From the NCBI GenBank assembly GCA_023245035.1, contig JAHFLD010000003.1:55736-119735 (forward strand): DNA of 64,000 bases, written 5' to 3'. Positions 5,893 to 11,032 of the stretch are shown piece after piece (position 1 is the first letter of the stretch; each line of letters starts with the position of its first letter). The translations under genes were made by a program, and so were the position numbers. This DNA comes from Candidatus Harrisonbacteria bacterium. GTDB taxonomy: Bacteria > Patescibacteriota > Minisyncoccia > UBA6257 > 1-14-0-10-40-38. The notes under the pieces were generated by a model that saw nothing but the letters and a program-made list of their open reading frames with translations, was not told the DNA's origin and did no database searches.

Positions 5893-6829
5893 AGGATTTT
5901 GGTAAATTCCGTGGAGAGTTTTTCCGATTTACTTGCCCACTGATTGTGGGCATTTTTATTATTTCCCCGTCTAGCGTATCTATTGCTTGTGAGCCTATTG
6001 GCATAATGTGATTAGGCGCTATAATTTGTTTATTGAGCGTGAGATTTTAGGGTTATATGAGGTGGGGCCTTCCAAGAAGGTCCAAGCACTGCATCCCAAC
6101 AAAATCCCGCGCTCTTTTTTTTCATCTCTTGGGCGTAGAGACTGTTTCGGTCTATGCCCACAGGGGAGTTGCGAGGGTGTTGACATGCTTTTTGATCTGG
6201 CTATACTTACTTTTACCTAATGAAGATTTTGCGACATACCAGGTGCGGCTCCTGACGTCTGTCTTTTGTTCTCTTCGAGAACTAGCCGCCCGCGAGGCGG
6301 TTTTTCATTAGGGCAATGCGAATGACGCGAAAAGGTTTACGAAATCATTTTTCTGCCTCATACTTCGTGACTCATATATAGGAAGTTCTGCGCTATCTGG
6401 ACTGGAGGATCTCGAGAACAGATAGTGCGGCGCTTAGTCGCACAATTTAAAAACGACTGAACTTTGATAATTTTAGATTGGGTCTTTTGTGTTTTGAAGA
6501 AGAGAGTGATTATATCCGATGCTTTAGTCGGCATCTGGATGATCAATTTGGGATTTGTGGTTAAACGCGCCCGGGATTTATTCCGGGTGTTAAGGGCGTA
6601 TGGTGGATGCCTAGACACAAAGTAGCGATGAAGGACGTGGCGTGGCTGCGATAAGCTTCGGGGAGGTGCTTAGCAACCTTTGATCCGGAGATTTCCGAAT
6701 GGGAAAACCCAATGCGGTAAACCCGCATTACTTCGACCTTGAGTCGAAGTGCTTACCCGCTGAAGTGAAACATCTCAGTAGGCGGAGGAAAAGAAAACAA
6801 TGCCGTTGTGGAACAACGGCGATTCCCTT

Positions 6830-6863
<34 letters not shown>

Positions 6864-6876
6864 TGGTTGTGCTTCG

Positions 6877-6976
6877 CACACTATCAACGAATAGCGAATA
6901 AAAAACCGAATGTACGAATGGATTAAATCCTCATTCGTAAATTCGCAATAGATTCGTAATTCGCTGATGAGCGTGC
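6877..6976 (+). repeat. 100-nt hairpin insertion copy 1 in 23S (helix 9/10 region), IVS-like
   Basis: Identical over 100 nt to the copies at 7475 and 8109. Internally four CGAAT units followed by four ATTCG units, giving a long imperfect hairpin. Flanked by a short copy-specific inverted repeat. Confidence 0.8.
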
Positions 6977-7236
6977 GGAGCGTAGCTGGGGGTTGTAAGG
7001 TAGAGACTTCTTGCTCATCGCCCAGTTCTTGAATAGTCGAGGACTTGGCGATCCGCAGGAAAAGAGTAAAAAATTCGCTAGTTAGCCGAGGCCGTTGGAA
7101 AGCGGCGCCAGAGCGGGTGATAGCCCCGTAGGCGAAAACATGCGAACTCTTGTTTCTATTCTTGAGTACCTCGAGGCAAACAAACCTTGAGGGAATCCGG
7201 GAGTACTATCTCCTAAGGCTGAATATACTTTGTGAT

Positions 7237-7267
<31 letters not shown>

Positions 7268-7474
7268 AAAAAGAACCCCGGAAGGGGAGTGAAATAGAAC
7301 CTGAAACCATATGCTTACAAGGAAGTGGAGCCCAATCTCGTAGCAATACGAGCCGGGTGACGCTGTGCCTATTGAAGAATGAGCCAACGACTTATTCTGT
7401 ACTGCTCATCTAAGCCATCTCTGATGGTGAAGGTAAAGCGAAAGCGAGTCTTAATAGGGCGATGTCGTGCTTCG

Positions 7475-7574
7475 CACACTATCAACGAATAGCGAATAAA
7501 AAACCGAATGTACGAATGGATTAAATCCTCATTCGTAAATTCGCAATAGATTCGTAATTCGCTGATGAGCGTGC
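7475..7574 (+). repeat. 100-nt hairpin insertion copy 2 in 23S at the helix-25 position (E. coli about 540-550), a classical IVS site
   Basis: Inserted between ...TCTTAATAGGGCGATGTC and AAGCAGTACGGGATAGACCCGAAGCC, corresponding to E. coli ...TCTTAACTGGGCG / GGGTATAGACCCGAAACC. Confidence 0.8.
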
Positions 7575-8108
7575 GGGGCACGCACAAGCAGTACGGGATA
7601 GACCCGAAGCCAGACGAGCTTACCCTGGGCAGGATGAAGTCCCGAGAAATCGGGATGGAGGTCCGAACTGGTGGGTTGTGCAAAACCCTCGGATGACCTG
7701 GGGTAGGGAGTGAAAAGCTAATCGAGTTTGGTAATAGCTGGTTCTCTCCGAAATAGTTTTAGGACTAGCGCTTCGTAAAAAGTCGTGAGGGGTAGAGCTA
7801 CTGGTTCGGGGGTATAGGGCGAAAGCTCGACCTTCGAGTCAAACTCCGAATACTCACGATTACGCGAAGTAGTCAGTACGTGGGGGCCAAGCTCCATGTA
7901 CGCAAGGGGAACAGCCCAGATCGCAGTCTAAGGTCCCTAAATTCTTACTAAGTGTTAAAGGTAGTCATCACCCATAGACAGATAGGAGGTTGGCTTAGAG
8001 GTAGCCATCCTTTAAAGAGTGTGTAACAACTCACTATTCGACGGTTGGTGGCGCCAAAAATGTACCGGGGCTAAGTAAGATACCGAAGACGCGGGTGTGT
8101 GTGCGTAG

Positions 8109-8208
8109 CACACTATCAACGAATAGCGAATAAAAAACCGAATGTACGAATGGATTAAATCCTCATTCGTAAATTCGGAATAGATTCGTAATTCGCTGAT
8201 GAGCGTGC
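8109..8208 (+). repeat. 100-nt hairpin insertion copy 3 in 23S at the helix-45 position (E. coli about 1170), a classical IVS site
   Basis: Inserted between ACCGAAGACGCGGG and GGTAGGAGAGC, corresponding to E. coli CACCGAAGCTGCGG ... GGGTAGGGGAGCG. One substitution relative to copies 1 and 2. Confidence 0.8.
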
Positions 8209-8968
8209 TACGCGTACACGCGGTAGGAGAGCATTTCTAGTGCGCTGAAGCGTGAGCCGCGAGGCCGCGTGGAGCGCTAGGAAGAGAGAATGTTGGTATG
8301 AGTAACCACATTTCCTATGAGAAATAGGAACCCCGAAAATCCAAGGTTTCCGTGGCAATGACAATCAACCACGGGTTAGGCGATCCTAAGGCGATGGTGA
8401 AAACCGCAGCTGACGGGAAGCCGGTTAATATTCCGGCCCATGCATATTTGTGCGATGGAGTGACGGAGGAAAAAAGATTGAGCGCCTTAATGGTTTGGCG
8501 TCGGGCGTGTTAAGGGACGTACCCCTGGAAAATCCGGAGTACTGTGTTTAATCACGAGTTCCGCGCACGTACGTAAGGTGAAGTTTTTACTTCGCTAATT
8601 CAATCGAAGAGCCTTCCGAGAAAAACTTCTAAGTTTAGAATATGGATTTCGTACCGTAAACCGACACAGGTGGATAGGGCGAGTAGCCCAAGGGGAACGA
8701 GTGATTCTTCGTTAAGGAACTCGGCAAAAAAGCGGCCGTAAGTTAGCGATAAGGCCTGCCCTTCGCAAGAAGGGCCGCAGCGAAAGTATCTCTGGCGACT
8801 GTTTACCAAAAACACAGCTCCCTGCTAACTCGCAAGAGGATGTATAGGGGGTGACGCCTGACCGATGCGAGAAGGTCAACGGTGGCTGTGCCAGGTAGTT
8901 TACTCTGTCTGGTGCGGACTGCCCGAAGCCCTCGTCAATGTCAGCGATAACTATAATCGTTCTAAGGT

Positions 8969-9167
8969 TCTGTATTGGATTTCGATCTAATGCAGAAGGA
9001 TTGGGACGATTATGGTCTGGTAAAAAGTTTAATATTACATTGGTGCAAAATATAGCTACCTCATCATGCAGTAATGCGTGAATGATCCTACGCGACTCCA
9101 AGAGACTATACGTCGTGCCCCCGTAATTCGGGGTGAAGATATAGTCCTTCGCATAAAGGAAGTGAAG
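8969..9167 (+). other. ORF-less group-I-like intron in 23S near E. coli position 1917
   Basis: Removing 8969-9167 restores CTAAGGT|AGCGCAATTCC, matching E. coli CTAAGGTAGCGAAATTCC. The upstream exon ends in U and the insert ends in G. It contains the group I core segment GAAGATATAGTCC and a GCAGTAATGCGTG block shared with the second intron. Confidence 0.7.
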
Positions 9168-9828
9168 AGCGCAATTCCTTTTCGGGTAAGTTCCGAAGCG
9201 CACGAATGGCGTAACGACTGGAGAACTGTCTCAACGAAGAGCTCGGTGAAAATGCGATACCCGTGAAGACGCGGGTTACCTGCAGCAAGACGAAAAGACC
9301 CCGGAAGCTTTACTGTAGCTTGGTATTGTCTTTAGGATTTATATGCGTAGTGTAGTGGCGAGGATTTGAAGCGTTGATTTCGGTTGACGTGGATCCGACA
9401 ATGAAACAGCCATCTTATGAATTTTAAAGTCTAACCCCGGCGGAAAAAACGCCGCGGGACAGTGCCTGGTGGGCAGTTTTAATGGGGCGTTATCCTCCAA
9501 AAAAGTAACGGAGGAGTTTATTAAGGTTGGCTTAGCCCGGATGGAAATCGGGCCGGACGTGTAAATGCACAAGCCAGCTTAACGGCAAGACCTACAAGTC
9601 GCGCCGGTGCGAAAGCAGAAATTAGTGACCCGACCACTCGTCATAGAAGGGTGGAAGACAACGGATAAAAGTTACTCCGGGGATAACAGGCTAGTCTCCT
9701 CCGAGCGTCCACAGCGACGAGGAGGATCGGCACCTCGATGTCGGCTCGCCCTAGCGCGGGGGTGGAGAAGCTCCCAAGCGTGTGGCTGTTCGCCACTTAA
9801 AAGGGCACGTGAGCTGGGTTCAAACCGT

Positions 9829-10143
9829 TGATGTGCTAATTACACGCCATAGAAGCGTGAATTTATTGGCGCATGAGCGGTTTGAGTCCAGATCCACACA
9901 TCGATTATTGTTTTAGTCTTTTCGTTTCTGAAAAAGTATAGTCATCAATCAAATCACGGCGGTCTTAAGAAGTAATTTTTAAGAACCCAGTTAACTTATT
10001 TCGGTGAAACCCAATGTGGGCAATACCGAGGGAATTCTTTGCGAAGCAAAGATGCCCGTAGAGACTACACGTTAACCCCCTAAATCGCGTAAGCGATCGG
10101 GTGAAGATATAGTCCAATGCACGCAGTAATGCGTGGAAACATG
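9829..10143 (+). other. ORF-less group-I-like intron in 23S near E. coli position 2593
   Basis: Removing 9829-10143 restores GGGTTCAAACCGT|CGTGAGACAGG, matching E. coli GGGTTTAGAACGTCGTGAGACAG. The insert ends in G after a U-ending exon and contains GGGTGAAGATATAGTCC plus GCAGTAATGCGTG. Confidence 0.7.
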
Positions 10144-10260
10144 CGTGAGACAGGTTGGTCTCTATCTGTTGTAGGCGTTAAACACTTGAAGGGAGTCGAC
10201 CCTAGTACGAGAGGACCGGGTTGAACGAACCGCTGGTCGGCCGGCTTTGGTACCAACTGA

Positions 10261-10319
<59 letters not shown>

Positions 10320-10847
10320 ACCCTAAGATGAGGTGTTTTTGCGTGGCGCAAGCTGCGCGAGCGATCGGTCGTAGACCACGACCTTGATAGGCTCTCGGTG
10401 TACGCACAGCAATGTGTTTAGCCATGGAGTACTAATGATCGCAGTTACCCATTTCCCAAATTGATCATCCAGATGCCCATTAGATAAGAGTTCCGCTGGA
10501 ACTTATGTAATGCGGTGTCAGTAAACTTCTTTAAAAAAACAAAAGACAAACCGAGATCCGGAGAAGGGTCTGGCGCGCAAATGCTCTTGTCGGGATAGAT
10601 AATCCGACATCAGTCATCACTTGCCGACTGGCTTCGTCTGTCTAGCGAAGTTTGGTTTTGGCGGTGGCGTTCGGTTTTGGCTCCAGTCTGGTACTGTTAA
10701 TACCATGGCTGTCCGGCCCGAATGTAGCTAAGCATTGAGCACGGTTTTCCTTCTGCGGAGCTTGGTCGTTCCAATCAAACGACCGAGCTCCGCCCTTTCT
10801 CCGGGTTTCGGTGTTAACCTTACGAAAAAGATTTTCTTCAGCGATTT

Positions 10848-10962
10848 CCTGGTGATCTAGCGAAACGTGACCCACCTCTTCCCATTCCGAATAGAGAAGT
10901 GAAAGCGTTTCACTCCGATGATACTTGGCCTTTCGGGGCTCGGGAAAGTAGGATTTGCCGGG
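10848..10962 (+). rRNA. rrf: 5S rRNA
   Basis: CCTGGTGATCTAGCG...CCCACCTCTTCCCATTCCGAATAGAGAAGTGAAAGCG...GGGAAAGTAGGATTTGCCGGG aligns over its whole length to the bacterial 5S consensus (CCCATGCCGAACTCAGAAGTGAAAC...GAGAGTAGG). Lies 400 nt downstream of 23S. Confidence 0.85.
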
Positions 10963-11032
10963 AATTCATTGCAGAAAATTTTTTCCGATATACAGATTTT
11001 TTTATATATCATCATCGTGATAAGATTTGGCA

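Follow-up and report, generated by a model that had tools for sequence, protein, structure and literature searches.

Two predicted group I-type introns in the 23S rRNA gene of a Harrisonbacteria genome, one of them apparently lacking P4-P6

The 23S ribosomal RNA (rRNA) gene found in a stretch of 64,000 nucleotides (nt) from Candidatus Harrisonbacteria bacterium (contig JAHFLD010000003.1; the whole stretch is called the window below) is interrupted by two short inserts, intron 1 at site L1931 and intron 2 at site L2593. As far as their sequences tell, both are of group I type and both are probably excised by guanosine-initiated, two-step transesterification, intron 2 as an ordinary member of the group and intron 1 as a form with a rod of helices and no P4-P6. 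Comparison of intron 1 with its relatives shows that P4-P6 is absent from its predicted fold and that the catalytic half of the core is kept, together with a guide matching both exons. We infer that intron 1 still performs the group I reaction, and its splicing may be slow, or helped by protein or RNA. A further-reaching reading, which we put forward tentatively, as possible and rather less than probable, is that intron 1 and its 11 homologues (class A) would be the first natural group I-derived ribozymes to splice without P4-P6 and without a U.G wobble, a rod made of the helices H1, X and P2 holding P1 against P3-P7-P8.

Alignment of the gene with Escherichia coli rrl by MAFFT revealed exactly two large insertions in its 3' half. 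The features concerned are the following.

6585-10452, plus strand: 23S rRNA gene (RF02541, 2241.9 bits)
8969-9167, plus strand: intron 1, 199 nt, after E. coli U1931; a class A member, scoring 192.7 bits with its own model, R1
9829-10143, plus strand: intron 2, 315 nt, after E. coli U2593; boundaries from alignment and flanks

The annotated E. coli rrl copy is 1 nt short, the landmark GACGGAAAGACC beginning at 2052 and not at 2053, so that alignment positions 1930 and 2592 correspond to the canonical U1931 and U2593. The flanks of intron 1 read CTAAGGT^AGCG(C)AATTCC, the 3' exon being AGCGCAATTCC (CTAAGGT^AGCGCAATTCC), and those of intron 2 read GGGTTCAAACCGT^CGTGAGACAGG, with AAACCGT^CGTGAGACAGG at the junction. 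An exon U precedes each insert, and the last nucleotide of each is G. The original prediction, made from the letters of this stretch, had stated that excision of the two inserts restores conserved 23S sequence, that each is preceded by an exon-terminal U and closes with G, and that the second lies at 2593, all of which the alignment and the flanks bear out. Its first site, near 1917, has to be moved to U1931, L1917 being a different known intron site. The description of both inserts as free of open reading frames (ORFs) for homing endonucleases also stands: no intronic ORF is longer than 62 amino acids, save for one antisense ORF of 163, no ORF overlapping intron 1 or intron 2 has a match in Pfam, and neither intron carries a LAGLIDADG, GIY-YIG or similar ORF. 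The nearest relatives with an organism name are genome bins labelled as Candidate Phyla Radiation (CPR).

Homologues of intron 1 were collected in two scans, one of genomes (one genome per species) for short L1931 inserts with a J8/7 core, the other of metagenomes with the 3' half of intron 1 as query and without an exon anchor. Class A comprises 12 distinct sequences of 176-215 nt, every one of them at L1931. Five come from named genome records labelled Saccharibacteria, Blackburnbacteria or Vogelbacteria, and the remaining six homologues from metagenome contigs; a scan of viral contigs with class A gave no match. Class A is a separate lineage tied to this one site, with members known to date from CPR-labelled genomes and from metagenome contigs. 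RF00028, the standard model for group I introns, does not place intron 1 in its family, giving 16.8 bits (E = 0.18 in a 1.3-kb search) against a threshold of 50, and three class A members score 16.5-16.8 bits, with E values of 0.04-0.18 even in searches of a few hundred bases. In the RF00028 alignment of intron 1, 17 nt stand for 81 model positions of P4-P6. The threading of a group I fold that had been proposed as a check thus succeeds in full for intron 2 and breaks down for intron 1 at a deleted P4-P6 block, and the proposed pairing between guide and exons is present in both introns, with the splice-site U of intron 1 opposite A and no U.G pair.

The predicted fold of intron 1 consists of the elements listed here, where intron numbering plus 8968 gives window coordinates.

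8969-8980 / 8985-8996 (intron 1-12/17-28), plus strand: H1, a hairpin of 12 base pairs with a UUCG loop; 12 of 12 pairs covary, and the hairpin is also in the single-sequence fold
8997-9001 / 9085-9089 (intron 29-33/117-121), plus strand: X helix, AGGAU:AUCCU; all cells paired
9002-9054 (intron 34-86), plus strand: variable region R, weakly structured
9055-9061 (intron 87-93), plus strand: guide GCUACCU, the exact 7-nt complement of AGGU^AGC
9062-9084 (intron 94-102/107-116), plus strand: P2 hairpin, loop GUAA; covariation in 6 of 9 pairs; contains GCAGTAATGCGTG
9091-9096 / 9112-9117 (intron 123-128/144-149), plus strand: P3, CGCGAC:GUCGUG; all cells paired
9097-9102 (intron 129-134), plus strand: P3-P7 linker UCCAAG, 6 nt, before the AGACUA block that holds the P7 5' strand
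9104-9110 / 9140-9146 (intron 136-142/172-178), plus strand: P7, GACUAUA:UAUAGUC, the guanosine-binding helix, in a pseudoknot with P3
9119-9133 (intron 151-155/161-165), plus strand: P8 hairpin; covaries
9134-9146 (J8/7 = intron 166-171), plus strand: J8/7, UGAAGA, and the P7 3' strand; core of the 17-mer GGGTGAAGATATAGTCC
9147-9151/2 with 9162/3-9167 (intron 179-184/194-199), plus strand: extended P9.0-type helix, which includes the terminal G

H1 begins at nucleotide 1 of intron 1, which puts the 5' splice site at the base of this hairpin. The guide pairs through ACCU with AGGU of the 5' exon (P1, with U-1 opposite A) and through GCU with AGC of the 3' exon (P10), so that both exon ends are covered; no G is available to U-1 for a wobble, and GCUACCU is invariant in all 12 class A sequences. 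The P3/P7 pseudoknot, P8, a J8/7 of consensus type, P9.0 and the terminal G are all present. P7 is invariant in class A and agrees with the RF00028 consensus AGACUA...UAGUC, J8/7 agrees with the consensus gAAGAUAUAGUC, and GAAGAUAUAGUC is invariant in the family, as is the terminal G (9167). The loop of P2 is GUAA or GCAA in each of the 12 sequences, and at the base of P8 stand two invariant C-G pairs (CC:GG). Docking of GNRA loops on tandem base pairs is the general basis on which, by analogy, we regard this CC:GG as the likely receptor of the P2 GUAA loop. Within the P9.0-type helix lies an invariant AGGAA (9157-9161), and a GNRA-capped P9 is absent.

The helices that vary do so in a paired manner. 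X occurs as AGGAU:AUCCU, UAACU:AGUUA, GACU:AGUC and AGGACU:AGUCCU (2/5 pairs changed on both sides), P3 as CGCGAC:GUCGUG and CAUGGC:GCCAUG (3/6 pairs compensatory), and P9.0 as CUUCGC:GUGAAG, CUUCU:AGAAG, CUUAU:AUAAG and CGAG:CUUG (4/5 pairs compensatory). Region R measures 29-61 nt across the homologues and, taken together with the 5-nt 5' strand of X, folds at -0.3 to -8.4 kcal/mol; a possible short helix inside it, GGAC:GUUU or GAAC:GUUC, is compatible with most sequences. A covariance model was built from the 12 sequences, which were then realigned for the counting of pairs. Its members score 150-201 bits. Standard pairs fill 96.7% of 569 cells, compared with 32-46% after a shift of the 3' partners by 1-3 columns, in an alignment that was fitted to the model and so favours structure, yet the same helices were recovered independently from sequence anchors. 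Changes on both sides were observed in 29 of the 48 pairs, and the observed values were reached in 0 of 500 shuffles.

Other ways of pairing intron 1 were considered and set aside. A long-range helix proposed by RNAalifold, AAGGAUUG:UAGUCCUU, competes with the invariant P7 and is broken in one homologue (locus L003), and the alternative to it, the X helix, covaries. The Rfam threading that uses the P2 3' strand as P3 is ruled out by the covarying P2 hairpin. The P3/P4-like pairings GACG:CGUC, GGAC:GUCC, UUGGA:UCCAA and AGG:CCU are none of them kept in the second subclade.

The nearest relative is locus L012, a contig from Hainich groundwater with 23S exons 98.6-100% identical to those of the window. 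Intron 1 differs from its counterpart there by 13% and the exons by 1.4%, yet H1, P2 and P8 remain paired where they have changed; at the level of sequence, selection is visible in this comparison.

The linker between the P3 5' strand and the AGACUA block is 6-7 nt long in all 12 class A sequences and holds no P4-P5-P6. This length makes P4, P5, P6, J3/4 and J4/5 impossible at their normal place. What has been lost is best seen beside class B, a set of five canonical miniature introns, ORF-less and 192-204 nt long, that the genome scan recovered at the same site in Omnitrophota, Planctomycetia and 'Undivivens' bins.

L004, 4012-4205: class B intron
L008, 547-740: class B intron
L009, 6157-6348: class B intron
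L010, 3735-3938: class B intron
L011, 4404-4603: class B intron

These are laid out as a guide (GCUAGCCU) with a U.G wobble, P2, P3, P4-P5-P6, P7, P8 and a GUAA-capped P9. The 194-nt member at L004 scores 43 bits with RF00028, below the gathering score, with P4-P6 aligned. Class B introns are smaller than the 205-nt intron of the Azoarcus tRNA-Ile gene, which is often cited as the smallest. Classes A and B are alike in site, in size, in the order guide-P2-P3 (the guide of intron 1 sits just before P2, as GCUAGCCU does) and in the core AGAGACUA...GAAGAUAUAGUCC; P4-P5-P6, the U.G wobble and the GUAA-capped P9 belong to class B alone, and the added 5' rod to class A alone. Side by side, everything from J3/4 to J6/7 is replaced in class A by UCC/AAG, and about 86 nt are extra between the 5' splice site and the guide (H1, the 5' strand of X, and R).

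Two further features are gone from class A together with P4-P6, namely the U.G wobble, now U-A, and the L9 GNRA loop. The wobble is read by J4/5, and the L9 GNRA loop docks on P5. Class B introns and intron 2 have GUAA as L9 and CC:GG available in P5; class A retains the L2 GUAA loop and the CC:GG pairs in P8. These linked losses indicate that P4-P6 is truly gone and not mis-aligned.

The following mechanism is proposed. In the lineage of intron 1, P4-P5-P6 would have been deleted, with J3/4 and J6/7 fused into the 6-nt linker. H1, X and P2 would stack as one rod, joined covalently through X to P3 by 1-2 nt, and at the other end of the rod the P2 GUAA loop would probably be docked on the CC:GG pairs of P8. 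P1 (AGGU:ACCU) could be held in place by the exon strand continuing into H1 and the guide strand into P2. After the first step, AGC of the 3' exon would pair with GCU (P10) where H1 had been. The rod would in this way assume the scaffolding and P1-positioning roles of P4-P6.

Several points weigh against this interpretation. Intron 1 is without P4-P6, regarded as part of the group I core, and without the near-universal U.G pair, and autonomous self-splicing may therefore be impossible or very slow. Splicing of both introns is a prediction from sequence, and the rod as a scaffold is a proposal of the structural model. P7, the guide and the exons are invariant, so that their pairings rest on complementarity, with covariation neutral; and the 12 homologues represent few clades, which means fewer independent compensatory events than the cell counts suggest. 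An unspliced L1931 intron is known in Simkania (cited in PMC11270868), so the site can tolerate a retained insert. On the other side, a T4 td ribozyme without P4-P6 is active, with activity reduced about 1000-fold, to about 0.1% (Ikawa et al. 2000, as summarized in PMC2879505), and catalysis by such a core is thus possible in principle.

It is conceivable that intron 1 keeps group I chemistry and is not autonomous, the function of P4-P6 being supplied in trans by a protein cofactor or by the P4-P6 of another intron of the same pre-rRNA, intron 2 for example. The slow td ribozyme would agree with the need for a helper, and further rRNA insertions occur at most of the class A loci examined: at L2593 (L012 and L015), at ~2657 (L012 and L017) and at ~1951 (several). 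Moreover, Doudna and Cech are said to have reported in 1995 that a separate P4-P6 RNA complements the Tetrahymena core in trans. Yet no candidate protein was identified, the partner introns vary by host (L017, L020 and L003 have no L2593 intron), and the conserved, covarying 5' rod of H1, X and P2 suggests a replacement that is built in. We consider a trans-acting helper unlikely, though worth keeping in view.

Alternatively, intron 1 might be a decayed group I relic without splicing chemistry, either retained as an expansion segment or excised by RNases of the host, with a 23S rRNA in fragments as the result. The missing P4-P6 and wobble and the RF00028 score of just 16.8 bits would be expected of a relic, the splice sites are flush with the bases of H1 and P9.0 and could serve nucleases, three hairpins resembling intervening sequences (IVSs) lie within the same 23S gene, and the unspliced Simkania intron cited in PMC11270868 offers a parallel. 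This explanation is nevertheless decidedly doubtful, since in a relic one would expect neither a 7-nt guide that matches both exon ends and never varies, nor the same constancy of the terminal G, J8/7 and P7. Decay is also at odds with the compensatory changes that P3, P2, X and P9.0 show in several CPR-labelled lineages, and with the preserved pairing in L012 at a divergence far above that of the exons.

There is, lastly, a slim chance that the core is rearranged and not reduced, with the 5' region (H1, X and R) forming a permuted equivalent of P4-P6 with J4/5-like contacts. The family without P4-P6 is also the one that acquired the ~86 nt, and H1, X and P2 could stack to a P4-P6-like length. 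However, a search for resemblance to P4-P6 in sequence gave nothing, region R is variable in length and weakly structured and offers no J4/5-like internal loop, and the partners of such a domain, the U.G wobble as target of J4/5 and the L9 GNRA loop that docks on P5, are both absent. Of these accounts, splicing by a P4-P6-less core carrying its own rod is the one that we prefer.

Intron 2 behaves as a regular member of the group I family. RF00028 gives 58.0 bits over 9936-10136, above the gathering score of 50, and the alignment covers P2-P9, with P3 to P7 at high posterior probability; for P4 to P6 the minimum-energy and centroid folds are concordant. Its elements are as follows.

9829-9883, plus strand: P1 extension and guide, from sequence and fold
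9831-9874, plus strand: extended P1/P1a stem
9872-9875, plus strand: P10 guide CAUG, pairing with CGUG of the 3' exon
9877-9883, plus strand: guide GCGGUUU, pairing with exon AAACCGU through a U.G wobble
9960-9986, plus strand: P2 hairpin with a GUAA loop, from the RF00028 alignment and the fold
9990-9995 / 10071-10076, plus strand: P3
10001-10006 / 10024-10029, plus strand: P4
10010-10020, plus strand: P5
10030-10057, plus strand: P6/P6a
10063-10067 / 10110-10114, plus strand: P7
10078-10101, plus strand: P8
10102-10114, plus strand: J8/7 and the P7 3' strand
AUG with CAU, plus strand: P9.0
10120-10135, plus strand: P9 hairpin with a GUAA loop, holding the second copy of GCAGTAATGCGTG
10143, plus strand: terminal G

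The core is therefore complete, comprising the P3/P7 pseudoknot, P4-P5-P6, P8, J8/7, P9 and the terminal G. The two checks that had been proposed, the Rfam family model and a guide pairing with the exon, both come out in favor of a group I intron here, the latter with the U.G wobble in place. A counterpart occupies the same site in L012; it has 373 nt, is 91-93% identical with a larger P6a and P8, and its changes in the P1 and guide region preserve pairing. By these features intron 2 can be classed with the ordinary group I ribozymes that have no ORF, another case of already-known biology. Between its guide and P2, at 9884-9959, lie ~75 nt that are AU-rich, weakly structured and conserved in L012; this segment may be what is left of a former ORF, or else a peripheral element.

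The two introns share the 17-mer GGGTGAAGATATAGTCC (9131-9147 and 10099-10115) and the 13-mer GCAGTAATGCGTG (9068-9080 and 10123-10135), as had been noticed from the sequence, and the assignment of the longer block to the J8/7-P7 core was correct, this being a core found family-wide. The shared 13-mer arises in 0.1% of shuffles, which is more than chance. The conclusion drawn from these blocks, that the introns are evidently related through duplication or transposition, does not follow. An identical 17-mer occurs in five other loci of other lineages, including Vogelbacteria and Planctomycetia, and 13 nt of it form a core present in 22 of 22 fetched introns, a count to be read with the scan patterns in mind, which themselves demanded 12 of those 13 nt. 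The 13-mer forms a hairpin with a GUAA cap and stands at non-homologous places, P2 in intron 1 and P9 in intron 2; hairpins with the 10-mer GCAGTAATGC recur in seven other loci, and in L012 the P2 hairpin reads GCGGTAACGCGTG with the P9 hairpin unchanged, so that the two differ. The class A model gives intron 2 a score of 30.3 bits, within the 8-39 bits of unrelated group I introns and far from the 150-201 bits of class A members. Despite the exact matches, a paralogous origin within this 23S gene can be given almost no credence, as the shared blocks are generic or misplaced, the architectures differ in P4-P6, the model scores are those of unrelated introns, and orthologues of each intron occur in other genomes at the corresponding site.

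Other insertions are present in this gene and in its relatives. Within the 23S gene of the window a 116-nt element is found in three copies.

6866-6981: first copy of the 116-nt element, within the 23S gene
7464-7579: second copy, within the 23S gene
8098-8213: third copy, within the 23S gene

The copies are 93-98% identical and follow E. coli positions ~278, ~654 and ~1169, the last of which is the classical IVS site of helix 45. Together with its flanks, each copy gives a long hairpin on folding (-56 to -64 kcal/mol), and no further copies were found in the window or in the fetched loci. A reading of CTGATGAG in these repeats as a hammerhead ribozyme was dropped, the Rfam search giving no ribozyme match and just generic matches to long hairpins. 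Unlike introns 1 and 2, the repeats fit the description of an IVS; apparently a single hairpin of IVS type has come to occupy three helix tips in one rRNA gene.

Among the relatives, L012 carries at 1443-2238 an extra insert of ~796 nt at E. coli ~2657 (window ~10207), with an ORF of 174 amino acids matching LAGLIDADG_1, which is absent from the window; the two rRNA genes, otherwise nearly identical, have come to differ recently in whether they contain a homing-endonuclease intron. In L015, a LAGLIDADG_1 ORF lies in the L2593 intron. In several class A hosts the L1931 intron is followed, just ~20 nt downstream, by another insert at E. coli ~1949-1951, after ...CCTTGTCTGGTAA in L003, L018 and L019 and after ...TTTTCGGGTAAG in L005, L014 and L021; the window has none. 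The result in those hosts is a tiny exon between two introns, as is also found in Coxiella burnetii.

Homologues of the characterized endonuclease I-ShaI (protein sequence from PMC11270868) were found at L025 (1025-2116) and L026-L030. Their intron lies after ...AACTCTAACTGT and before TCTAAGGT, at E. coli ~1923 and not 1931. This route to ORF-bearing relatives of intron 1 was abandoned, because the homologues lie one site upstream, after 1923 (...AACTGT^TCTAAGGT), in a canonical intron, with the ORF extending into P7/P3.

Downstream of the 23S gene, across a spacer of ~395 nt (10453-10847), the window contains a 5S gene.

10848-10963: 5S rRNA gene (Rfam)

The Rfam scan found no 16S gene within the 64,000-nt window; with none adjoining the 23S gene there, the rRNA genes appear to be unlinked.

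The interest that goes beyond the original prediction lies in the class A lineage; intron 2, and short ORF-less introns at L1931 and L2593 in CPR bacteria, would be unsurprising on their own. To our knowledge, all textbook group I introns have P4-P6, which counts as an indispensable half of the core. With a conserved lineage that goes without it in nature, one can ask directly which parts of the fold catalysis requires; the same lineage illustrates a way in which evolution might exchange one scaffold domain for another. If class A does splice, it would be nature's own version of the engineered 'minimal catalytic domain' and, at 176-215 nt, would rank with the smallest introns that splice themselves. 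There is also a practical consequence: at ~17 bits the standard group I model misses class A, so that CPR rRNA surveys file such elements as unknown short inserts, and a 200-nt insert would stay in rRNA gene models, in the middle of domain IV.

Brown et al. were reportedly the first, in 2015, to note ORF-less introns in the 23S genes of CPR bacteria. In the CPR survey of Tsurumaki et al. (2024, PMC11270868), 82% of 23S genes are interrupted, with hot spots that include 1917, 1931, 1952, 2593, 2604 and 2657. Its 433 group I introns in 23S include 222 without an ORF, which makes the original statement that most reported ones encode homing endonucleases out of date. Short ORF-less introns at L1931 and L2593 in CPR 23S genes are thus already catalogued, and both introns resemble them in host group, gene, sites, shortness and lack of an ORF; LAGLIDADG-bearing versions at the same sites are known there and were seen here in L015 and L012. 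Intron 2 fits this description fully. Class A does not: the survey defines introns by an Rfam match with E <= 1e-5, which ~16.7 bits misses, and a missing P4-P6 is not described in it. Class A probably sits among the survey's leftover short 'uncharacterized' inserts, which match no intron model.

IVSs that are removed by RNase III without ligation are, like both introns, short ORF-less inserts in 23S rRNA. They are simple extended hairpins at the tips of variable helices, whereas both introns interrupt universally conserved sequence and have a group I core, a guide and a terminal G; neither answers to the definition of an IVS. The L1931 introns of Thermotoga, Simkania and Synechococcus (Haugen et al. 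2007, PMC1995217) are like intron 1 in site, in being of group I and in residing in bacterial 23S genes. They measure 654-700 nt and have a LAGLIDADG endonuclease of 143-167 amino acids, a full core with a complex P5 region and no P2, in contrast to the 199 nt of intron 1, which is ORF-less, has P2 and lacks P4-P6. The 'divergent' tRNA-Thr introns of Patescibacteria are reported to be of canonical length and fold (PMC13011429).

A natural group I intron lacking P4-P6 was not found in full-text searches of the open-access literature, where an engineered case was the only one to come up, and the architecture of class A appears to be undescribed. That case, the 'minimal catalytic domain' (Ikawa, Shiraishi and Inoue 2000, as summarized in PMC2879505), is like class A in consisting of a P3-P7 domain without P4-P6. 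The engineered ribozymes are laboratory deletions with ~1000-fold slower reactions, whereas class A is natural and conserved and comes with a structured 5' domain.

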